NCBI GenBank assembly: GCA_965223705.1
Contig: OZ245015.1
Coordinates: 3,360,001 to 3,424,000, forward strand
Length of the DNA stretch: 64,000 nucleotides
Source of the DNA: Myxococcota bacterium
Lineage (GTDB): Bacteria > Myxococcota_A > UBA9160 > UBA6930
Direction of reading: 5' to 3'
Shown here: positions 16,719 through 28,934 of the stretch, in pieces
Numbering within the stretch: the stretch's first letter is position 1
Layout: every line of letters begins with the position of its first letter
Notes under the pieces: model-generated
Database searches by the model: none
Seen by the model: the letters and a program-made list of their open reading frames with translations, nothing else
What the model was told of the DNA's origin: nothing
Position numbers and translations under genes: made by a program

Positions 16719-18704
16719 ATGTCCGACGGAAGCCGGGTCGCCGTCCGTGATGTAGACGTGCGACGCGTGGAAAGTCTTGAGGGGCTCGCCGCATATGGGG
16801 CGGTCGAGGTGCTTTTCCGCGACCAGGGCGTTCCTGTGGGCCGAGCCCGGCTCCTAGCTCCGAGTGCGAGGCTCCGTGCCGAGGCGATCCGGAAGGCGTG
16901 TCCACCCTTCCCGAAGGGCGACCGAACAGCCCGAACCCCCGGGATCATCCCGACACTCAGCGTCGCCGTCTGCACTCGCGATCGGCCTCGAGAGCTCGCT
17001 GCCGCGCTAACGACTCTCGCCCGCCAGGAGACCCCGCCGCTCGAAATCCTCGTCGTCGAGAACGGCGAGGCCGGCGAGACGCGCGCGGTAGTGCAGCGCT
17101 GTCTTCCCTCCGCGCGCTTCTTGCATGAGCCCGAAGCCGGTTTGGACTTTGCGCGCAATCGCGCCCTGATGGCCGCGGGCGGTGACCTGATCGCCTTTCT
17201 CGACGACGACGCCGAGGCGGATCCGCAATGGGCCGGCCGCATTGTCGAGGCGTTCGCGAACGATGCGGAAATCGGGGCCTTGACCGGCCTCACGATGCCC
17301 CTCGAGCTCGAGACGACGGCCCAGTGTTTGTTCGAGGCCAACGGTGGATACGGACGCGGGTTCGAAGTCCGACGCGTTCGGAGGCACGAGGGCATGTGGC
17401 ATGAGCTACTGCGTCCACTTCCCGCCCGAGTGCTCAACAGTGGGAATGGTTGCAACATGGCGTTTCGCGTGTCCGTCCTGCGCGCCGTTTCCGGGTTTGA
17501 TCCGGCGCTTGACGCCGGGCCTCCACTGCCCGGAGGCGGAGACCTCGACGCGCTTCTGCGAGTTTGCCAAGCCGGGCACGACATCCTCTACGAACCGCGT
17601 GCTCTGGTGCGACATCGACACCGCCGAACACTCGATGCCATGGACAAGCAGCTCGCGGGCCACCACCGCGCCGGAGTCGCCTACTTGGTCAAGAGCGTGG
17701 CGGGCGCTTCCGGAATCGCGCGACTCGGCGGCGTACTCTTCCTGATCTGGCGTCTTGTCAAGAATCCACTTCGGTTGTTGCGCTCCTGTGTGGGTCTCGA
17801 TCCCCTTCCGCCGCGCACACTCGCGGCTATGTCGAAGGCAGCCGTCGCAGGGCTGGGTAGCTACTCGTTGTCAAAAGCTCGCCAACGGCGGCACGTCCGG
17901 CGCCATGGCGGTCGTCCGCCGAACGCCCGCTCACAGGCCATCGACACGTGGCTCCACCGCGAGCTTGTCTGGCGACTCACCCAAAGGGATCTCAAAGCAA
18001 AGTATCAGGGTTCGTGGTTGGGCTTTCTTTGGACGTTGATCAACCCCCTGGTCACGATCGGCGTGATGGTTGTCGTCTTCTCACAGATCGTGCGGATTCC
18101 CGTGGACCGCTACTGGGCCTTTTTGTTGAGCGGCTATTTCGTGTGGTCATTCTTCGCGCAGACGCTCACCGGTGGCGTCCAAAGCGCCGCAGGAAACGCC
18201 TATCTGACCCGCAGTGCGTGGTTTCCGCAGGAATCGCTGGTGCTCGCCGCCGGAATCGCGCGCTTCCTCGAGTTCGCCATCGAGATGACCATCGTGGCGG
18301 TCGTGTTGGCAATCTTTCATCACGGCGCCATTCCCGCCTCCTACCTGGCTCTGCCCATCATCGTCCCCGCTCTGTTCATCGTTGTCATCGGCGTCGCTTT
18401 TCCGATCGCCGCACTCGCCGTCTACTACGTCGATACCGTCCACGCCTTGCCCTTGGCGATCGCAGCTCTTTTCTACGCGACGCCCGTTTTCTACCCGTTG
18501 AGCATCGTTCCCGAGCCGCTGCGCGCGTTCTTCGCACTGAATCCCATGGCGTTCCTGATCGATCTGTTTCACGACACCCTCTACAAGGGCGTGCTTCCGA
18601 GCTCGGCCGAGCTGGGGCTGACCGTCCTCGGCGGCATTGCTATCGCGGGGACCGGCTACTGGCTCTTCAACCGTCACAAGCGCAACTTTGCGGAGTTGTT
18701 GTGA
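16719..18704 (+). CDS. wzm: GT2 glycosyltransferase fused to an ABC-2 polysaccharide export permease (Wzm)
   Basis: One ORF carries GT2 motifs (VCTRDRP, FLDDD, GCNMAFR) and, from about 17930, Wzm motifs (RDLKAKYQGSWLGFLWTLINP, FYATPVFYP, LNPM, FAELL). Confidence 0.85.
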   Translation: MSDGSRVAVRDVDVRRVESLEGLAAYGAVEVLFRDQGVPVGRARLLAPSARLRAEAIRKACPPFPKGDRTARTPGIIPTLSVAVCTRDRPRELAAALTTLARQETPPLEILVVENGEAGETRAVVQRCLPSARFLHEPEAGLDFARNRALMAAGGDLIAFLDDDAEADPQWAGRIVEAFANDAEIGALTGLTMPLELETTAQCLFEANGGYGRGFEVRRVRRHEGMWHELLRPLPARVLNSGNGCNMAFRVSVLRAVSGFDPALDAGPPLPGGGDLDALLRVCQAGHDILYEPRALVRHRHRRTLDAMDKQLAGHHRAGVAYLVKSVAGASGIARLGGVLFLIWRLVKNPLRLLRSCVGLDPLPPRTLAAMSKAAVAGLGSYSLSKARQRRHVRRHGGRPPNARSQAIDTWLHRELVWRLTQRDLKAKYQGSWLGFLWTLINPLVTIGVMVVVFSQIVRIPVDRYWAFLLSGYFVWSFFAQTLTGGVQSAAGNAYLTRSAWFPQESLVLAAGIARFLEFAIEMTIVAVVLAIFHHGAIPASYLALPIIVPALFIVVIGVAFPIAALAVYYVDTVHALPLAIAALFYATPVFYPLSIVPEPLRAFFALNPMAFLIDLFHDTLYKGVLPSSAELGLTVLGGIAIAGTGYWLFNRHKRNFAELL

Positions 18705-19495
18705 TCGACCGCCAGCCGCGCCAGACTTTGGAGCTCGCCGACGACGTTGCTGTCGGGCTATGCAACGTGACGAAGCGATTCGTTCACTACGAAGGTACCC
18801 CGCGCACGCTGCGAAACCTTTTCATTCGATCAGCGAAGCGACGAGCCACGACACAGAGCTACTTCTCGGTACGAGACATCTCCATCCGAGTGGCACGCGG
18901 CGAGAGTGTCGGCATCATCGGCGACAACGGAGCGGGAAAAAGCACGCTACTCCGCCTGATCGCGGGGATCTATTGGCCGAGCGAGGGGTCGGTCATGACA
19001 CGTGGACGCTTGGCCCCATTGATCGAACTCGGCGTCGGGTTTCATCCGGAGCTGACAGGTCGTGAGAATGTCTTTCTATACGGATCGATCCTCGGGATTC
19101 CAAGTGACGTTCTCGAAGCGCACTATGACGACATCGTCCGAATGTCGGGCATCGCCGAATTCATGGACAGCCCCGTCAAGCACCACTCTTCCGGGATGAG
19201 GGCGCGACTCGGCTTCGCCGTCGCAACGGCGATCCGCCCAGATATTCTGTTGCTCGACGAGGTTTTCGCCGTCGGGGACGTCGGCTTCCGAGAAATCTCC
19301 GTGGCTCGGCTGCGCGCCTTCCAGGAAGCTGGAACGACGACGCTGCTCGCAAGTCACGACCTCGGCATTGTGCGCGAATTCGCAACGCGGGTCATCTGGC
19401 TCGAGAATGGCGCGATCGCGGCCGCGGGAGAGGTCGAAGAGGTGACCCGGGCCTATCAGCACGCGAAGTTTCCGACTGGAGAACCCGCCGGGTGA
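18701..19495 (+). CDS. wzt: ABC polysaccharide exporter ATP-binding subunit, lacking a C-terminal carbohydrate-binding domain
   Basis: GDNGAGKST, GFHPELTGREN, SSGMRARLGF, LLDE and SHD. The GTG start overlaps the wzm stop. Confidence 0.92.
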   Translation: MIDRQPRQTLELADDVAVGLCNVTKRFVHYEGTPRTLRNLFIRSAKRRATTQSYFSVRDISIRVARGESVGIIGDNGAGKSTLLRLIAGIYWPSEGSVMTRGRLAPLIELGVGFHPELTGRENVFLYGSILGIPSDVLEAHYDDIVRMSGIAEFMDSPVKHHSSGMRARLGFAVATAIRPDILLLDEVFAVGDVGFREISVARLRAFQEAGTTTLLASHDLGIVREFATRVIWLENGAIAAAGEVEEVTRAYQHAKFPTGEPAG

Positions 19496-20586
19496 ACTCC
19501 CAGTCGGCGATACCTGAGAAGCCGGACCTCAGTGTGGTCATTCCTACCAGGAACCGCCCGCAAGCGCTCGCGTTGACGCTCAAAGCCCTGTCACGCGTCG
19601 ACTTTCCGCCGCCCGAACGATTCGAGGTCGTGATCGTCGATGACGGTTCCGCAGAGCCCGTCGGACGGAGCGAATTAGAACGGACCGCCCCGAAGCGAAC
19701 CCGGGTCGTGCGCCATGAGAGGCCGTTGGGTGCAGCGGCCGCGCGCGAGCACGGCTGGCGCGTCGCCACGGGAGAATGGGTGCTCTTTCTCGACGACGAT
19801 GTTCGCCCTGCCCCCGAGCTGCTCGTCCGCCATCGGGAAGCTCAGCAGCGGAGCGGTGCGGAGGTCATTTTGGGAAGCTGCCCGTTTGAGGCGCGGGATG
19901 CCGAACCACCCCATGTGCGCCTCACCCGACTTTGGTGGGACTCACACCTCAAGAGACTGGCGACGGACGAGCCGAGCTGGTTCGGTCAGCTGACAACAGG
20001 AAATGTCTCGATCCGTCGCGACGTCCTCGTGCGTTGCGGTGGATTCGATGTGACGTTTCCCGCTCGGGAGGACTACGAGTTGGGACAGCGCTTGCTCGAT
20101 GCCGGCGCCGCCTTCCACTACGAAGCGGCTGCGCGGGCCGTCCAGACCTGTTGCGAGAGCATCCATGAATGGCTCGAAGGATTTCGGGCGTGTGGTCGGG
20201 CTGACGTCGCTTTCGCGTGGAAGCATCCGACTAAGGTCGCTGTCCTCATGCGGCGCGCGGGACTGGCCCCGGTGCCGCGATGGTTTGGCGGCCGCGCGCT
20301 GGCTCTCGCTACTCGGTTCCTCACTCGATCCCGCGCCCGCTACGACTTCCGTTGGATGTTATCCTCACGCTTGGTTCTCGCGGATCGCTATTGGGGCGGT
20401 ATCCGCGAAGCTTCAGCGGACCCGAGAATCCCGGGCCTCCTAGAACGCGCACAACGTTCCGGATCAAGCGCGGAGTGGCTCGCGTGGCGATCCGCTTCAG
20501 ACATGCCCGGACTCGGTCAAGGCCCGGGAGCGGGATCCGCGGCGCGGAGCCCTTCCCACGGGCACTCGGTGCACTCGTATCGGTAA
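19492..20586 (+). CDS. Glycosyltransferase family 2
   Basis: SVVIPTRNR, VDDGS, FLDDD, TGNVS and EDYELG. Confidence 0.88.
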   Translation: MNSQSAIPEKPDLSVVIPTRNRPQALALTLKALSRVDFPPPERFEVVIVDDGSAEPVGRSELERTAPKRTRVVRHERPLGAAAAREHGWRVATGEWVLFLDDDVRPAPELLVRHREAQQRSGAEVILGSCPFEARDAEPPHVRLTRLWWDSHLKRLATDEPSWFGQLTTGNVSIRRDVLVRCGGFDVTFPAREDYELGQRLLDAGAAFHYEAAARAVQTCCESIHEWLEGFRACGRADVAFAWKHPTKVAVLMRRAGLAPVPRWFGGRALALATRFLTRSRARYDFRWMLSSRLVLADRYWGGIREASADPRIPGLLERAQRSGSSAEWLAWRSASDMPGLGQGPGAGSAARSPSHGHSVHSYR

Positions 20587-21599
20587 AACCGCAGACCAAC
20601 GCGCTCGAGGCTTCGGTCTCTGGCCGTGCGAGGGATTCGTTCGATCCGGTGGCTGCCGCACCGCGGACAGCCGCCGTGCCGGCTCAGCGATGGATGATTC
20701 AGGACCCAGTGCTTGGCCGGGACGCACAGGACGAGGAGAAGAGCGCCCAGGAAGACCGCAGTTAAGATTCCGGCGCCACCCTCGTATGCGAGCCAGGCCA
20801 ACGCGCTCGGAAATCCGTAGATCACTTCAGCGACGCCGGTTTGCGCGTTCAGTCGAAAAACCATGGGCTCATTTTCCCGAACGGTCGTGACCTCGAAACC
20901 TTCGATGTCGACAGTTCTTCCATTCGCTCCGACGCTGTGCCAGGTCCCGGTTCCGACGATCCGGACCTCAAACGTGGCTGGGCTCGCCACACGCGTGTAG
21001 AACTGAAACTTCGACGCGCCGAACGGTGTCAGCGCCGTGCGTCCTTCGTCGTGTCTCCAGCCCTGGAAACCACCCGTCGCCGTGTAGGCATCGTGTCCGT
21101 CCTCGGCAACCAACAAGATCCGGCTCGCTTGACCGCTCGCAGTCCGTTGCTGAACCAGCTTGAAGCGGACGACCTGGCCCGGTTCTTTAACCACGGCCCA
21201 GGACGCCTGCGGTGGGATCTGAATGCGCCAATCGCCGCACGCGACAGCCACCCAGAGGTAGTGGCCGGCCGCGTCAAATCGAAATTCCGCCGAATAGATC
21301 CCGTCGCCCGCCTCTTCGTCAGCGTCGAGACCTCGATCGTTCATCGGGTGACTGGCGCTATCCCACGCTTGGAAATCCCCCGCCAGGCACCACCCAGTAT
21401 CGGGTACCGTGATGTCGCGCAGGACGTGGGTCGGCGTGCCCCGTTCGGCGAGCTGCGTTGCGAGGAGCACATAGGGATTGGCCAACGACGCCAAAGCGAG
21501 GACAACGGCGATCGTCGCAAGGATTGGCCACAGCCGCGCTCCTTCCTTCTGGGGCTTCGGCTGGTGCCCGTCCGCTGATGCCTCCGCCGTCTCGGACAA
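20517..21599 (-). CDS. Membrane protein with two CBM-like beta domains and a C-terminal Zn ribbon
   Basis: N-terminal TM, repeats AGDFQAW/TGGFQGW, DRGLDADEEAGDGIYS motif, a second TM, and CPRC...CTEC. GGGAGA RBS before TTG 21599. Confidence 0.65.
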   Translation of the reverse strand: MSETAEASADGHQPKPQKEGARLWPILATIAVVLALASLANPYVLLATQLAERGTPTHVLRDITVPDTGWCLAGDFQAWDSASHPMNDRGLDADEEAGDGIYSAEFRFDAAGHYLWVAVACGDWRIQIPPQASWAVVKEPGQVVRFKLVQQRTASGQASRILLVAEDGHDAYTATGGFQGWRHDEGRTALTPFGASKFQFYTRVASPATFEVRIVGTGTWHSVGANGRTVDIEGFEVTTVRENEPMVFRLNAQTGVAEVIYGFPSALAWLAYEGGAGILTAVFLGALLLVLCVPAKHWVLNHPSLSRHGGCPRCGSHRIERIPRTARDRSLERVGLRFYRYECTECPWEGLRAADPAPGP

Positions 21600-21716
21600 C
21601 CGCGTTCTCCCTAGCGCCGAGCCGAATCGATTCGATGCCGGGTAGTTCGGGACAATGAAACCGCCGATCGCAACTTCTTGCCAGACGGCCCCGAATACAA
21701 GGACGTGGGTGACGCG

Positions 21717-22757
21717 ATGACCGAAAAGCTCAGCGTGTGCGTCATCAATCGAAACGGTGGCGATGCGCTTGTCAACACATTGGCGTCCATCATGGAACAG
21801 GGGGACATCGTTGCCGAGGTTCTTCTCGTGGACAACGCATCGGACGACGGTAGCCCCGAAAAGGCCCTCGCGTGCCACCCTTCCGTCAAGCTCGTCCGGC
21901 GGGAAGACAATTGCGGTCCCGGTGCAGCCCGAAACGCGGGATTCCGGGCGGCACAATACGAGCGAATCCTATTTGTCGACGGCGACGTCCGCCTGCAGCC
22001 AGGTTGCGCCGCGCAGCTGCGACACGCTCTCGCGCACTCGGAACGCATCGTCGCGGCGATGCCCCGTGTTCGGTTCGAGGATACGGGGGAAGTTCAGTGC
22101 GATGGAGCAGATTCTCACTATCTGGGTTTCATGTTGGTCCAGCACCAGAGGGGAAATGAGATGCGGCGCATCGGATCTATCGTGTCGGCCTGTATGCTGC
22201 TCGATCGCTCTCGCTGGGGGCGGTCGGATCCGTTTGATGAAGACTTCTTCATCTACTACGAAGATCACGATTTCGGCCTTCGAGCGCGCGCTGCCGGATG
22301 GGAGCTTGTGGGCGTACCAGCCGCAGTGTGCTCTCACGGAGGGGGCACGCCCGGGTTGTCGTATCGCCCTGGACGCTCGTATCCGACCGGGCGTGTCTAC
22401 TTCCACATCCGTAACCGTTGGCAACTCATCCTCAAGAACTACGAGTTCGGATCCCTGTGTCTCTTGGCGCCCTGCCTGCTCTTCTACGAAGCTCTCCAAC
22501 TCGCGGGCGTCGTAAGCAAGGGTTGGTTCAAAGAATGGACACGCGCCGCGGAGTGGGTGCTCTCCAACCGGCGGACACTTCTCGCGAAGCGCCGCGCCGC
22601 AAGCGCAGCGCGGACCGTCTCCGATCGCGAGCTTTGGGTCGGCGGAGAGTTGCCATTCCATCCGGGACTACTGACCCGCCGCGGGGAGCGGGCCGCGTTG
22701 CGCTTCGTCAACGCTGTCCTCGCAGCCTATTGGCGCCTTTGCTCGAGAATCCTCTAG
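21717..22757 (+). CDS. Glycosyltransferase family 2 (rhamnosyltransferase/WbbL-like)
   Basis: VDNASDDGS, ARNAG, FVDGD, FDEDFFIYYEDHD and RNRW. Confidence 0.88.
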   Translation: MTEKLSVCVINRNGGDALVNTLASIMEQGDIVAEVLLVDNASDDGSPEKALACHPSVKLVRREDNCGPGAARNAGFRAAQYERILFVDGDVRLQPGCAAQLRHALAHSERIVAAMPRVRFEDTGEVQCDGADSHYLGFMLVQHQRGNEMRRIGSIVSACMLLDRSRWGRSDPFDEDFFIYYEDHDFGLRARAAGWELVGVPAAVCSHGGGTPGLSYRPGRSYPTGRVYFHIRNRWQLILKNYEFGSLCLLAPCLLFYEALQLAGVVSKGWFKEWTRAAEWVLSNRRTLLAKRRAASAARTVSDRELWVGGELPFHPGLLTRRGERAALRFVNAVLAAYWRLCSRIL

Positions 22758-22799
22758 ATGCACTAACATGGCCGGCGGACCCCGTGCTCTGGATCTTCG

Positions 22800-23999
22800 A
22801 TGTCAGTCCGCCGCGTTCTCATGGTCGCTGCCTGTCCGTTCCCCGCGAACCGCGGAACCCCGATTCGGAGCTTTCGATTGGCCGAGGCCATCTCCAAGGC
22901 CGGAATCGAAGTCGAGGTCGTCACTTATCACTTGGGACGAGCGCAGCCCGAACCGAGCTTTTCGGTTTACCGGACCCCGCGCGTGGCGACGTATGTGCGC
23001 TATCGGCCGGGACCCTCCCTGCAGAAACTGGTGGTGATGGACCCGTTGCTGATGCGGAAGATCCGCTCGCGTATCCGGCGCAACCCTCCCGACGTGATTC
23101 ATGCCCATCACTGCGAGGGTTTGCTAACCGCGTTGTTCGCAAGTCCCGATTCCGAGTGCCCCGTGATCTACGATGCGCACACGATTCTGGGCGCGGAGCT
23201 CCCCCACTACCTTCCGCGCTGGATGAAAGCCCCGGGGCGCTGGCTCGGCGATACGTTCGACCGCTATCTCGCGAGGCTTTCCGAGTTCGCCATTGTCGGC
23301 ACCCAGGGGATGAAAGACGAACTCCTCGAGCGGAATTTTGGCCCGGAGAAGTGCATTCGAGTGATCCCCAACGGCGTAGATTTCGATGCGTTTACCCCCA
23401 TCGACCCTACTCGATTGGGAACCGACGAAGGCAATACCATCGTATTCGCGGGAAATTTGGCTCCCTACCAAGGTCTGCAGCTGCTTGCGGAGGCCTTCAA
23501 GGTCGTTCGCTCCTACCGCCCGGACGCGCGACTTCAGGTCGTTACCGAAGATCGAACGCGCCCAGTGGGTTGGCCAGCAGAGATCGAGCTGATCAACGCT
23601 TCGTTTCGCGAACTGCCCGCCTACCTGCACCGGGCCGACATCGCCGTCAATCCGCGGTCGGATTCCGCCGGAATGCCGCAAAAGCTGTTGAACTACATGG
23701 CAGCCGGGCTTCCCGTCGTCTCCTTCGCACGAGGGGCCGAAGTGATCGAGCACGGGAGCACGGGCTTTATTGTTTCAGAACCAACACCGGACGCACTGGC
23801 TCGCGGTTTGATCGAGATGCTGAACAACAGGGCACTCGCGCGCCGGTTGGGCGCCAATGCGCAAAGAAAAGTCCAGCGAGAATTCAGCTGGGCGCGTGCG
23901 GCGGAGGATTGCCTGTCTGCGTACGCTGACTTTAGGGAGACCAAGGCGAGAGAGCGCTCGCGAGGAGAAAGCGTTCTCGGACGAAAGGAACTGCGATGA
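22800..23999 (+). CDS. Glycosyltransferase family 4
   Basis: VIHAH, IYDAH, IPNGVD, FAGNL and PQKLLNYMAAGLPVV. Confidence 0.92.
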   Translation: MSVRRVLMVAACPFPANRGTPIRSFRLAEAISKAGIEVEVVTYHLGRAQPEPSFSVYRTPRVATYVRYRPGPSLQKLVVMDPLLMRKIRSRIRRNPPDVIHAHHCEGLLTALFASPDSECPVIYDAHTILGAELPHYLPRWMKAPGRWLGDTFDRYLARLSEFAIVGTQGMKDELLERNFGPEKCIRVIPNGVDFDAFTPIDPTRLGTDEGNTIVFAGNLAPYQGLQLLAEAFKVVRSYRPDARLQVVTEDRTRPVGWPAEIELINASFRELPAYLHRADIAVNPRSDSAGMPQKLLNYMAAGLPVVSFARGAEVIEHGSTGFIVSEPTPDALARGLIEMLNNRALARRLGANAQRKVQREFSWARAAEDCLSAYADFRETKARERSRGESVLGRKELR

Positions 24000-24466
24000 C
24001 GCAGGAGACCATGCTTCGGTGGCTCGTTGACATCGAACAGATCAAGCAGCTCAAGCACCGCTATTGTGCGTACTGCGACGAACAATACGACCCCGAAGGC
24101 ATCGCCGGCCTCTTCGCCGAAGACGGCGTGTGGGAAGGCGGGCCTTTCGGCCGCGCGGAGGGCCGCGACGGGATCCGCCAGTTCTTCGGTGACGTGTCGA
24201 AACAAGTCGAGTTCGCGAATCACTACGTGACCAATCCGATCATCGACATCGACGGTGATTCGGCGACTGGACGTTGGGACTTGTGGCAGCCGATGGTGAT
24301 GACCGAAGGTCCCGCCGCTCTCTGGCTGGTCGCGAAGTACCGAGAACAATACGTGCGATCCGGAGATCAGTGGTTGTTCCGACTCCTTGAGCTCGACGTC
24401 AAGGCGCTGTCGCCCTACGAAGAAGGTTTCGCGAAGCAGCGCCTGATCGAAACGGAGGCATCGTGA
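23996..24466 (+). CDS. SnoaL_4/NTF2-like protein (LinA/BaiE/scytalone dehydratase fold)
   Basis: DIEQIKQLKHRYC...D28, LFAEDGVW, GRDGI, H76-YVTNPII and ATGRW. Confidence 0.82.
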   Translation: MTQETMLRWLVDIEQIKQLKHRYCAYCDEQYDPEGIAGLFAEDGVWEGGPFGRAEGRDGIRQFFGDVSKQVEFANHYVTNPIIDIDGDSATGRWDLWQPMVMTEGPAALWLVAKYREQYVRSGDQWLFRLLELDVKALSPYEEGFAKQRLIETEAS

Positions 24467-24882
24467 CGAAGCAGCAAGCGATCGACACCGTCAACCAGTT
24501 TATGAAGCTCCTCCTCACGGATTTTCCGAAGTGCTTGAAGATGCTCTCCGACGACTTCGTGTGGGAGAACTTCTTGCCTTCACATGTTCCGTTCGGCGGA
24601 CGCTACGAAGGCGCTTCCGGCCTTCAGAAGTACCTCGAACAACTGTCAGCGACTTGGGTGATCGGAGAGCTCGTGTTTCTCGATTTCATCTTCGATTCCG
24701 AAACGAGCATCTTGGCAGCGACCGGTGTCGAGAAAAACGGCAAAGCTCTGTCGACCGGACGCACTTGTGACATGCCGTTCGTCTGGGAGTTTCGGTTTTC
24801 CGAGGATGGCAAGATCACCTACCTCCGCGAATACAACGACACCGCTTCGATCGGCGGCACGTTCGACGCGGCCGGTGCTTGA
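24463..24882 (+). CDS. SnoaL-like/NTF2 family protein
   Basis: LSDDFVW, VPFGGRYEG, TGR and GKITYLREYNDT. Confidence 0.8.
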   Translation: MTKQQAIDTVNQFMKLLLTDFPKCLKMLSDDFVWENFLPSHVPFGGRYEGASGLQKYLEQLSATWVIGELVFLDFIFDSETSILAATGVEKNGKALSTGRTCDMPFVWEFRFSEDGKITYLREYNDTASIGGTFDAAGA

Positions 24883-24894
24883 GCGGAGGAGCCC

Positions 24895-25455
24895 ATGACG
24901 CAACTCACTCGAATCCCTCGGTCCGAGCTCACCCCGGAACTGGTTGCGCTTCACGACCAGTTGACGAAGGAAGGCGTTGATGCGCGGTTTGTCGAAGCGG
25001 GCGCGAACGCTCCCGAACTCCTCGATTGGTACTTCAACAGCTTCTACGGAAAGGTCTTCTACGATGGCCGTGTCGACGCTCGAACGAAGGAGCTGTTGCG
25101 CCTCAAGCTGTCGAAGACCCACGGCTGCTTTCTCTGAAACCGCGTGAACACTGCCTCGGCGAGGCAGCACGGAGTGACGCAGGCTCAGATCGATGCTCTC
25201 CCCGACGACGTCGAGAACGAGGCATTCTCGGAGAGAGAACGGGCGGTCCTACGAGCGGCCGAACAGATGGTCCTCACCAACCTCCACGGCATGCTCGAGG
25301 ACGGACATTACCAGGCGCTGAAGAAGCACTTCTCCGACGGCGAGATCTTCGAGCTGGGCATGGTGATGGCCGTTCTCTGCGGTTTTGCCAAGTTCTTGTT
25401 CTGCTTCGACTTGGCTGATCGCGAGGACACCTGCCCGATCCACCCAGGCGCGTAG
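24895..25455 (+). CDS. AhpD/carboxymuconolactone decarboxylase-like predicted selenoprotein (CxxU; TGA 25135-25137 read as Sec)
   Basis: ORFs 24895-25137 and 25144-25455 share one frame. Reading through gives KELLRLKLSKTHGCFL-U-NRVN...FSERERAVL...LKKHFSDGEIFEL, one 186-aa CMD domain. A SECIS-like hairpin follows the TGA. Confidence 0.82.
25144..25170 (+). promoter_or_regulatory. Bacterial SECIS-like stem-loop
   Basis: GTG-aaca-CTGCCTC-GGC-GAGGCAG-CAC forms a perfect 7-bp stem with a G-initial loop 20 nt after the UGA. Confidence 0.7.
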
Positions 25456-25461
25456 TTCGGG

Positions 25462-26364
25462 CTACGCGGACGCGGCCTTCGACAACCACTCCCGGATGGC
25501 TTCTCCGATTTCGTGAGGACAGTCCTCCTGGAGAAAATGGATGCCGGGGAGCGTGATCTCCTGCTGGTTGGGCCAGGCCCGACAGATCTCCCGCGGCCGA
25601 CCGACCAGGATCGCGCCGGGTTCCGCATTGATGAACAGTTTCGGGAACGCCGCGGTATTCATGAAGTCGGCGTTTGCCGCGACGGCTTCCACCACGTCCG
25701 TCGGCTGCCCCGCTAGCGGGATCTGGCGCGGCCAAGTCAGCGTCGGCCGCCGGGATTCTCCGGCTTCGGTATACGGGGCGCGGTAGACGTTCATCTCCTC
25801 GTCGCTGAGCTTGCGCTGGATCGCGGCGGGTAGAACTTGTTCGATGAACACGTTTTGCTCGAGGACCATGGCCTCTCCGGCATTCGAACGAAAGCCTTCG
25901 AAGAGCCCCACGAACTCCGGCGGAAAATCGGACCACTCGAGAGGGGTCACGATGGCCTCCATGTACGCAATGGCTCGAACGCGATCGGGGTGTTGTCGTG
26001 CCCACTCAAAGCCGAGGGCCGAGCCCCAATCGTGAATGACCAGCGTCACCGGACCTTCCGGTACCAGCGCATCGATGAAGCCGTTCAGGTAGTGACGATG
26101 CTGCGCGTACGTATAGGAGAACACGGAGGGCTCGGGGAGCTTTTCAGAGTCACCCATTCCGACAAGATCCGGGGCGATGCAACGGGCCCGATCCGCCAGG
26201 TGGGGCATGATGTTTCGCCACAGGTAGGACGAGGTCGGGTTGCCGTGTAGAAACAGGATCGGTTCTCCGGAACCGATCTCGACGTAGGCCATCTCCAGTC
26301 CGTGGACGTCGACCTTTTGTTTCTTCGCGGGGTGGTTCGTTTCGATCGATCGGGCATCGGACAT
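25462..26364 (-). CDS. dhaA: Haloalkane dehalogenase (HLD-II, DhaA/LinB type)
   Basis: LHGNPTSSYLWRNIMP, IHDWGS, YMEA, TLTWPRQIP and GIHFLQED. Confidence 0.92.
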   Translation of the reverse strand: MSDARSIETNHPAKKQKVDVHGLEMAYVEIGSGEPILFLHGNPTSSYLWRNIMPHLADRARCIAPDLVGMGDSEKLPEPSVFSYTYAQHRHYLNGFIDALVPEGPVTLVIHDWGSALGFEWARQHPDRVRAIAYMEAIVTPLEWSDFPPEFVGLFEGFRSNAGEAMVLEQNVFIEQVLPAAIQRKLSDEEMNVYRAPYTEAGESRRPTLTWPRQIPLAGQPTDVVEAVAANADFMNTAAFPKLFINAEPGAILVGRPREICRAWPNQQEITLPGIHFLQEDCPHEIGEAIREWLSKAASA

Positions 26365-26439
26365 CGGGTTCCTCACTTCGCGAAACCAGGGTTGTGCGTT
26401 CGCCGTATACTCTAGGTTACCGGGCCCGAGGAGAACCAC

Positions 26440-27246
26440 ATGAGTGAGAAACTGCGTTTCTTGCACCATCCCGCCTCACAACCGTGCCGAGCGGCGCGCC
26501 AGTTCCTAATCGAAAACGACATCGCTCATGTCGATGAGATCATCGATATCACGACGAACATCAACGAGACCCAAGAATTCAGAGATCGCTACAACCCGAC
26601 GGGGCAAGTGCCTATTCTTGTCGACGGCGACTTCGTGGTGTGGGAGAACGTCGCGATCGGGCGGTACTTGGATGAAAAATTCGAGTGCGAAAGCCACTGG
26701 TTCGGTTCCAGCCTGGAAGAGCGGGCGAAGATCAACCAATTCGTTCAGTGGTACGCGTACACACTGCGACTCGGCGGGGGGGCGTTCCACTGGACGATCT
26801 TTGCTCCGATGATCTATGGGCCGGACAAAGATTTCACCGCGGAACGGAGGAAGGGATATCACGTCCTCTACGAGTCTCTGGAGGTGCTAGAGAACTACTG
26901 GCTGAAGAGCAGCGACTACTTGTGCGGCGAAGAAGTGAGTTACGCGGATCTAGCCGCTTACCACGAGCTGGTGTCGCACGACGCGGGGAACATCATTCCC
27001 GAGAACGTCTGGAAAAAGCATGGCCGCATCACCGCGTGGTTCGAGCGCATGTCGGCGCGGCCGGCGAGCAAGGCGGTGAGTGCGTGGCAGTACGAGACGA
27101 TCCGCAAAGTGCTCGCCGGAGAGATCTCCGTGGAATTCAATCGGCGCACCGCCGTACTGAAAGGAACGGAGGCTTTTGGGGGGCACAACAACGGCATCCC
27201 TCATCTCGGCGAAGAGCGGGACTACCTCGCCGAGGTGGAAGCCTAG
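26440..27246 (+). CDS. dcmA: Dichloromethane dehalogenase-like theta-class glutathione S-transferase
   Basis: KLRFLHHPASQPCRA, YNPTGQVPILVDG, WYAYTLRLGGGAFHWTIFAPMIYG, LVSHDAG, VSAWQYE and RTAVLKGTE...GHNNGI match the remembered DcmA sequence. The catalytic Ser is retained. Confidence 0.85.
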   Translation: MSEKLRFLHHPASQPCRAARQFLIENDIAHVDEIIDITTNINETQEFRDRYNPTGQVPILVDGDFVVWENVAIGRYLDEKFECESHWFGSSLEERAKINQFVQWYAYTLRLGGGAFHWTIFAPMIYGPDKDFTAERRKGYHVLYESLEVLENYWLKSSDYLCGEEVSYADLAAYHELVSHDAGNIIPENVWKKHGRITAWFERMSARPASKAVSAWQYETIRKVLAGEISVEFNRRTAVLKGTEAFGGHNNGIPHLGEERDYLAEVEA

Positions 27247-28304: not shown

Positions 28305-28934
28305 ATGAAACTTCACGATTGTCAGATGGCACCGAACCCCCGCCGCGCCCGGATCTTCCTCGCAGAAAAGGGGATCGATTGCGAGATGGTTGAGCACAGC
28401 ATTCTCGGCGGTGAAACGAACGCCGGCGACTACCTAAAGATCAACCCATGGGGCACCGTACCGGCCCTCGAGCTCGACGACGGCACCGTCATCCGCGAAG
28501 CACCGGCGATCATGCGCTACCTCGAATCCCAACACCCGGAGCCCAATCTGATGGGCAGCGATCCGCGCGAGGCCGCGGAGATCGAAGCTTGGGAGCGATT
28601 CTCCGAGCAGAACGGTATCGGTGCGATCGGCGAGTTCTTTCGCAACCAGACCGATGCGCTCAAGGGGCGCGGGATGCCCGGCCCGACGAGCCTGGAACTG
28701 ATTCCCGGCCTGGTGGAGCGTGGCAAGAAGCGCGCGGGCTGGTTCTATACCGAGCTCGACAAGCGCCTCGGCGAATCGGAATACCTGGGCGCGGGTCGCT
28801 ACACCGCGGCGGATATCACCGCTCAGTGCGCAGTCGACTTCGGCAACGCCGTGGGCATGGGGATACCCGACGCCTGCAAGAACGTCGCGCGCTGGCACGC
28901 GGCGGTGAGTTCGCGACCGAGCGCCGCGAGCTAA
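28305..28934 (+). CDS. Glutathione S-transferase (GTT2-like)
   Basis: APNPRRARIFLAEKGI, INPWGTVPALELDDG and TAADIT. Confidence 0.9.
   Translation: MKLHDCQMAPNPRRARIFLAEKGIDCEMVEHSILGGETNAGDYLKINPWGTVPALELDDGTVIREAPAIMRYLESQHPEPNLMGSDPREAAEIEAWERFSEQNGIGAIGEFFRNQTDALKGRGMPGPTSLELIPGLVERGKKRAGWFYTELDKRLGESEYLGAGRYTAADITAQCAVDFGNAVGMGIPDACKNVARWHAAVSSRPSAAS

Follow-up and report, generated by a model that had tools for sequence, protein, structure and literature searches.

A gene of the AhpD/CMD fold, split at an in-frame TGA in a Myxococcota genome, is predicted to encode a CxxU selenoprotein

Introduction

Gene callers divide a short gene in the window (the whole 64,000-nucleotide stretch of Myxococcota DNA analysed here) into two small reading frames at a TGA codon. 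Are these frames the halves of a broken gene, or do they form a single intact gene whose TGA is read as selenocysteine (Sec, U)? If the latter holds, what would the protein do? Candidates of this kind have been predicted since 2005, when AhpD-like (27 sequences) and CMD-domain (4 sequences) selenoproteins with a CxxU motif were described from the Sargasso Sea (PMC1088965), so the initial annotation of the locus was right to regard AhpD-like selenoproteins as already known. The GOS survey counts 299 + 70 AhpD-like/CMD-like CxxU sequences, among the commonest marine selenoproteins (PMC2398784), and a 2026 review lists AhpD-like/CMD CxxU selenoproteins as well (PMC13188914). Literature searches found no biochemical study of any AhpD-like selenoprotein.

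Reading frame and CxxU motif

The gene occupies 24895..25455 on the forward strand. It begins with the ATG at 24895, 5 nt beyond a Shine-Dalgarno-like GGAGG (24885..24889, +) that presumably serves translation initiation, and its frame stays open across the TGA up to the TAG at 25453-25455. With TGA translated as U, the product has 186 aa and carries U at residue 81. The CxxU motif, TGC TTT CTC TGA (25126..25137, +), consists of Cys78 (TGC, 25126-25128), two intervening residues and the predicted Sec81 (TGA, 25135-25137). Translation table 11 splits the gene into an 80-aa and a 103-aa ORF, the latter with a possible start at the in-frame GTG 25144. Database proteins show the same split: the 87 protein hits comprise 76 with Cys at the column, 7 without CxxC and 4 C-terminal halves of 103-104 aa that start at Val84. 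The Pfam domain CMD (PF02627) spans the TGA over residues 43-124 and scores 64.3 bits against a cut-off of 23, compared with 21.2 and 32.5 bits for the two halves taken separately. The initial annotation had placed the TGA at the second Cys position of a CxxC motif, with a frame beyond it that completes the domain and a gene split by ORF callers, and in each respect the locus agrees with it. As far as sequence can tell, the apparent broken halves are one intact gene, in line with the frame, the Pfam match, the structural model and the homologous loci.

Selenocysteine machinery and genetic code

The source genome (G000; 4.56 Mb, 95% complete) contains selA, selB and selD above curated cut-offs, as well as a tRNA-Sec (selC) with anticodon UCA. 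TGA ends 459 of its 1209 long ORFs and a tRNA-Trp(CCA) is present, so the genetic code is standard. Recoding of TGA to Trp was ruled out by that tRNA, by the common use of TGA as a stop and by a homologue column that holds only Cys or TGA. The selD gene (L010, G000:C1:22501-23403), about 2.3 kb away from selB, is embedded in an open frame of 736 aa that contains no TGA; it is probably a Cys-type fused SelD. At G000:C1:4419161-4419253 (-), ARAGORN additionally reported a tRNA-like element of 93 nt with a four-base reading of the anticodon loop (ttca), which is probably a false call.

Homologous loci and evolution of the Sec column

The comparison covered 99 homologous loci, of which 19 come from named genomes and 80 are the best of 310 metagenome loci; a twentieth named-genome locus, L070, was excluded because its sequence does not include the column. 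The codon at the Sec column is TGA in 29 loci and TGC or TGT (Cys) in the other 70, and never Trp or anything else. TGA homologues occur in three named phyla, and the 19 named-genome loci show no other internal stop. Since the TGA recurs in 29 orthologous loci, a sequencing error is implausible; of four sequencing runs compared, only X1 covered the gene, through one contig that matches it exactly, though this run is possibly the source of the assembly. A selA gene was detected in 17 of the 19 genomes with named loci and was not found in the other two, whose assemblies measure 2.3 and 2.9 Mb.

The closest orthologues come from a Myxococcota MAG (82% identity), Binatia (68-72%) and Actinomycetota (61-65%), and the same query gave only paralogue-level matches of 24-37% in 60 relatives of the source genome. 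A tree of 73 rows, 62 of them Cys forms, unites the 11 Sec rows in a single clade (97/92) whose neighbours all have Cys. Under midpoint rooting, this fits one Cys-to-Sec change followed by spread across phyla. A second Sec origin, considered for L131, was rejected: its column codon is TGC and its stop lies at residue 182, in the tail. Natural pairs of Sec and Cys forms, about 55% identical and apparently separated by one Cys-to-Sec switch, together with the odd residues described below, offer a testable chemistry.

Among the protein hits, P0082-P0088 retain the fold residues, whereas CxxC and the tail Cys have both disappeared; they are probably non-redox derivatives. An ESM Atlas query with the Cys homologue P0003 returned CMD-named clusters only. 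SnoaL-AhpD fusions or other longer forms were absent among 1535 candidates, which speaks weakly against their existence.

A hairpin specific to the TGA loci

Downstream of the TGA lies a putative bacterial SECIS upper stem-loop (25151..25167, +), CTGCCTC-GGC-GAGGCAG, with a 7-bp stem and the loop GGC at 25158-25160, whose first G (25158) sits 20 nt after the TGA, exactly as first annotated. Criteria for bacterial SECIS elements specify a loop of 3-9 nt, a stem of 4-16 bp, a spacing of 16-37 nt, a G within the first two loop positions and an energy of -7.5 or lower (PMC13188914); here the loop has 3 nt and opens with GG, the stem has 7 bp, the spacing is 20 nt and the energy is -10.0 kcal/mol. 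The folding energy did not differ significantly from that of shuffled sequences (z = 0.35, -0.85 and -0.63) and was therefore left out of the evidence. Downstream of 400 ordinary TGA stops and of 600 Cys codons, G-loop hairpins of -10 kcal/mol or lower turned up in 13 and 20 cases, respectively, so a single hairpin taken alone is at chance level; it is the comparison between loci that makes this one real.

An in-register hairpin, defined by at least 6 of 7 pairs and a G as the first loop base, is present in 29/29 TGA loci and in 0/70 Cys loci. An alignment of 20 sequences, 17 of them distinct, shows 98.3% pairing in the upper stem, with both-side, compensatory changes at three of its seven pairs. 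The covariation score was reached by 0 of 500 shuffles and slid controls pair at 27-51%, figures that are not probabilities, the sequences being mutually related. The lower stem is kept in orthologues and broken in this copy, whose stem uses rare codons (ACT, 3.5% of Thr codons; AGG, 2.2% of Arg codons).

The contrary reading would make the locus a pseudogene, two small genes, a sequencing error or a case of TGA read as Trp. It can appeal to the GTG at 25144, which could open the 103-aa ORF, and to a hairpin that by itself is at chance level. Nevertheless, the same TGA recurs across phyla without other internal stops, every non-TGA homologue has Cys, the covarying hairpin follows the TGA, the Sec machinery is complete and TGA is a common stop in the genome, and the chance of this reading appears negligible. 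The internal TGA almost certainly encodes selenocysteine, a prediction drawn from comparative data. The proposals of the initial annotation, namely to look for the Sec machinery and for Cys or TGA in homologues, thus found their answers, and its selenoprotein reading is borne out.

Other predicted selenoprotein genes in the genome

PF02627 has 19 matches in the genome, nine of which hold one TGA, each within a CxxU motif followed by a G-loop hairpin. Apart from the gene studied here, these are eight further CxxU AhpD/CMD-like genes with SECIS-like hairpins (L151-L158), which belong to several subfamilies; their TGAs lie on G000:C1 at 3205240+, 4259322-, 4166357-, 3328292+, 1293633+, 1586431+, 2352216+ and 2492127-. 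All are split by gene callers, so the annotation fix extends from this CxxU gene to at least eight sister genes of the same genome. These paralogues are 14-30% identical to the present protein, with one scoring above the cut-off of TIGR01926 and two above that of NF041238. Owing to this low identity and the different NCBIfam passes, they are regarded as old, distinct subfamilies, and a recent duplication burst was ruled out on the same grounds. Sec occupies the second motif position in all nine. The tail Cys described below is present in 4/4 of those without the relay His, versus 1/5 of those with it. The multi-copy state is not unique to this genome, as five other genomes also carry CMD matches with one TGA (4/15, 9/18, 7/20, 4/12 and 5/10; these are counts of TGAs, not of motifs).

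Two genome scans, the second with a looser filter because the first had not recovered the present gene, yielded 47 candidate TGAs, 38 of them non-AhpD. Among 21 of these 38 that were tested, a family match across the TGA was missing for six, which were set aside, and was found for 15: a peroxiredoxin, two Bcp, three Prx/ResA-like, one thioredoxin-like, four PrdB-like, a rhodanese, two UGSC and an ArsC. The genome is thus predicted to contain at least 24 selenoprotein genes, including the nine divergent CxxU AhpD/CMD genes. No Sec was found in five matches to the molybdopterin Fe4S4 motif, within that motif region. The richest genomes hold more, with 46-63 selenoprotein genes (PMC13326102).

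Several of these genes deserve separate mention. Two AhpD-like Sec genes adjoin peroxiredoxin-like Sec genes (L151:2137-4055; L158:2754-5068), the partners being a Bcp gene about 0.9 kb upstream in tandem and a divergent WAxxUGC gene; the pairing echoes the Prx/AhpD clustering noted in GOS. The four PrdB-like genes (L164-L167; G000:C1 2803729-, 150121-, 3213240+ and 2137623-) have an in-frame TGA with near-identical SECIS stems 17 nt downstream, and all score below the TIGR04483 cut-off. A rhodanese-like CxU protein is predicted at L168:555-1241 (G000:C1 1887603-), and its frame continues into what we take to resemble an adenylate/guanylate cyclase domain.

Protein fold and conserved residues

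The AlphaFold (AF2) model (pLDDT 95.6) is all helical, and model and fold search agree on a predicted AhpD fold with the two-helix CxxC hairpin. The best folds by Z are Atu0492 (16.4), 2pfx (15.0), Bmp8 (14.9), 3lvy (14.8) and Mtb AhpD (10.0), and Foldseek agrees. Residues 78 and 176 are the only beta-bridge residues in the model (DSSP); to judge by this one bridge, the C-terminal tail with Cys180 probably lies beside the CxxU motif.

The AhpD proton relay consists of Glu118, Cys130, His132 (Tyr in PA0269), Cys133 and His137 (PMC3141380). At these positions the present protein has Glu66, Cys78, Leu80, Sec81 and Asn85. Glu66 (25090..25092, +) corresponds to Glu118 of Mtb AhpD and is Gln in 14 of 99 loci. 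The position equivalent to His132 is Leu, Phe or Tyr in the subfamily. Asn85 (25147..25149, +) stands where AhpD has the relay His137; among the 76 CxxC hits this position is Asn in 70, Asp in 6 and His in none. As the Cys orthologues are also without His, selenium does not explain the loss. Three further residues are invariant in 99/99 loci: His76 (25120..25122, +), two residues before CxxU; Lys166 (25390..25392, +), also kept in 82/82 rows of alignment A2; and Cys180 (25432..25434, +), which supplies a third chalcogen and sits in the Cys-Pro tail at the C-terminus. C78, N82, H76, K166 and C180 are invariant in A2. In a survey of distant representatives, 82 of 150 of which covered the motif, in rows that are not independent and sometimes look truncated, the tail Cys accompanied Asn/Asp at the relay position in 35/54, Arg in 8/17 and His in 0/6, the remaining five rows having other residues there.

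No NCBIfam model is above its cut-off for this protein. The AhpD core model TIGR00778 gives 21.7 (cut-off 27.8) and TIGR01926 gives 44.1 (81.8); among the AhpD-related selenoprotein families, NF053654 gives 50.9 (310), NF041047 19.7 (110) and NF041537 24.4 (510), and NF041238 has no hit. By the relay test, the protein is not a canonical AhpD and is probably a thiol/selenol oxidoreductase of that fold.

These data bear on how ordinary the protein is. It might be the same selenoprotein working as a plain AhpD, that is, a general peroxidase or peroxiredoxin reductase acting through CxxU only, with Cys180 structural or incidental. The fold and the E-x11-CxxC spacing match those of PA0269 and Mtb AhpD, PA0269 shows weak peroxidase activity (PMC3141380), two paralogues adjoin peroxiredoxin-like selenoprotein genes as described above, and L051 has an adjacent AhpC-TSA gene. 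However, the relay His137 equivalent is absent in 76/76 CxxC hits, that of His132 is replaced, TIGR00778 stays below its cut-off, and a peroxiredoxin is not among the recurring neighbours. A plain AhpD is consequently the less likely reading. Alternatively, Cys78, Sec81 and Cys180 might form a three-ligand site that binds or handles a metal or metalloid (As, Hg, Cu). The three chalcogen residues are invariant and appear close together in the model, and there are weak sub-threshold hits to the arsenic-linked AhpD models TIGR04169 and NF041537. Yet these hits are far below cut-off and no ars, mer or cop gene was seen among the recurring or scanned neighbours, which makes a metal site very improbable. 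We prefer a redox cycle in which all three residues would take part.

Gene neighbourhood and a possible catabolic role

The gene closes a head-to-tail run of a glycosyltransferase gene, a SnoaL_4-like gene (23996..24466, +), a SnoaL_2-like gene (24463..24882, +) and the CxxU gene itself, the SnoaL genes being assigned by Pfam. Among the 19 named-genome loci, 13 carry next to the gene an orthologue of the SnoaL_2 protein (70-79% identity). These 13 belong without exception to Binatia, in which the SnoaL_2 gene lies downstream, so the linkage appears to represent about two independent lineages. The orthologue was absent beside the two closest loci (L051, L071) and beside all 80 metagenome loci; in the latter, other SnoaL-fold genes occur at 9/80 and alpha/beta hydrolases at 17/80, counts whose seeds partly come from the same loci, many of them short. 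The SnoaL_4 gene is a local neighbour, found beside 0/99 homologous loci. A scan of 34 + 14 hand-picked ORFs recorded flavin monooxygenases, alpha/beta hydrolases, enoyl-CoA hydratase, amidase, Mo-hydroxylase subunits, TauD, P450 and luciferase-like monooxygenases, and the neighbours differ widely between loci. Such neighbours suggest oxidative catabolism of several kinds rather than a single pathway. The earlier suggestion of a catabolic role based on two SnoaL genes is therefore supported in part, by the SnoaL_2 gene kept in the 13 named loci but not by the SnoaL_4 gene.

Around the run, a glycosyltransferase/ABC-export cluster occupies 16719-23999 of the window. Because its last gene overlaps the SnoaL_4 start (ATGA, 23996-23999), this cluster may share a transcript with the SnoaL-AhpD genes. 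A sigma-70 promoter scan of 23500-26600 returned 0 sites, and no terminator was found there on the + strand. Downstream are a convergent alpha/beta hydrolase gene (25462-26469, -), which we take to resemble haloalkane dehalogenases, and two GST genes (26440-27246 and 28305-28934) with an SMP-30/gluconolactonase gene in between. CMD genes are also described beside ECF41 sigma factors (PMC3426412).

Such surroundings bring a pathway-specific catabolic reductase to mind, for example a reductive dehalogenase like Bmp8, with selenium used by analogy with the thyroid deiodinases. Deiodinases employ selenium for dehalogenation, and Bmp8 carries out reductive debromination. In the fold search, the debrominase belongs to the tied group of best matches (Z 14.9, rmsd 3.7, 172 aligned), and it is also a sequence hit (E 4.9e-7); moreover, catabolic neighbours recur, and the presumed haloalkane-dehalogenase-like hydrolase and two GST genes lie nearby. 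On the other hand, the Bmp8 motif CMYCKSH has a His at +3 for which there is no counterpart here, the PDB complex carries the C82A mutation at the first Cys of the motif, of which the present protein has Sec at the second position, and the Z score is tied with three uncharacterised AhpD-like proteins. A pathway-specific reductase of this type is thus unlikely, and a broader selenol/thiol oxidoreductase remains the preferred reading.

Proposed mechanism

In the scheme that we favour, SelB with Sec-tRNA, bound to the in-frame hairpin, would read UGA81 as selenocysteine, giving an all-helical AhpD/CMD-fold selenol/thiol oxidoreductase, the fold being that predicted by the model and the fold search. 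Sec usually marks the catalytic position and is second in all nine paralogues, and we infer for these reasons that the selenolate of Sec81 is the nucleophile towards a substrate that is oxidised or electrophilic, such as a hydroperoxide or a disulfide. Cys78 would then resolve the adduct to a selenenylsulfide, and the tail Cys180 might take over the oxidation and pass it to an outside reductant, such as a lipoyl protein, thioredoxin or a small thiol. His76 and Lys166 probably stand in for the missing Glu-His-water relay. The likeliest role would be a redox clean-up or a reductive step tied to oxygenase- and hydrolase-rich catabolic clusters. For comparison, the reductant chain of Mtb AhpD is NADH-Lpd-DlaT (PMC12028322; PMC8945050). 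In Sestrin2, Cys125 is essential (PMC11429811); by His spacing it would correspond by analogy to the first motif position, which counts against an attack by Sec81 first. We put the whole proposal, with Sec at UGA81, an oxidoreductase function and the Sec81/Cys78/Cys180 cycle included, at a probability of roughly 0.55.

A bolder idea is that the His-less tail-Cys proteins constitute a mechanistically distinct AhpD branch, in which CxxSec and a C-terminal Cys relay are dedicated to catabolic reduction. We hold this to be speculative and rather improbable. If true, the relay would serve dehalogenation or C-S/S-S cleavage instead of general peroxide removal, and 4-9 different AhpD-fold selenoenzymes would form a substrate-specific toolkit in aerobic-type bacteria, among them Binatia and the present one.

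Comparison with known systems

The best sequence and fold matches are PA0269 and Atu0492 (PDB 2o4d, 2ijc, 2gmy; E 4e-17, Z 16.4; PMC3141380), which share the Glu-x11-CxxC hairpin with this protein. Unlike them, it has Sec in place of the second Cys and Asn in place of the relay His55, together with a longer N-terminus and the C-terminal Cys-Pro tail. Mtb AhpD (1gu9) shares the fold (Z 10.0) and equivalents of Glu118, Cys130 and Cys133, whereas counterparts of His132 and His137 are missing here, the motif lies in the N-terminal half and there is no conserved ahpC neighbour. PcaC, the gamma-carboxymuconolactone decarboxylase, is described as having no CxxC motif (PMC3141380), in contrast to the CxxU found here, and the gamma-CMD 2af7 aligns only at Z 4.7.

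The tetrabromopyrrole debrominase Bmp8 (6ohi) has the same length and fold (Z 14.9) and a CxxC at the matching place. Its catalytic His at +3 is replaced here by Val84 (mostly Gly in homologues), Sec is second, and no bmp-type cluster was seen around the gene. The AhpD of Streptococcus pneumoniae (6e8l) has the same fold (Foldseek TM 0.66) and was reportedly described by Meng in 2020 with a 'three-cysteine active site', which would be a precedent for a third active-site cysteine.

The Sargasso and GOS AhpD-like/CMD CxxU selenoproteins (COG2128, PF02627) are alike in domain, CxxU, in-frame TGA and bacterial SECIS, as well as in their widespread Cys homologues and in being predicted from genomes only; the present protein differs in falling below every NCBIfam cut-off (TIGR01926, NF053654). 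Its HGCxxUN subfamily may already be catalogued in survey supplements or in BSepDB. The protein is a known kind of predicted selenoprotein and not a new system; what is unusual is the combination of Asn or Asp in place of the relay His with an invariant Cys180.
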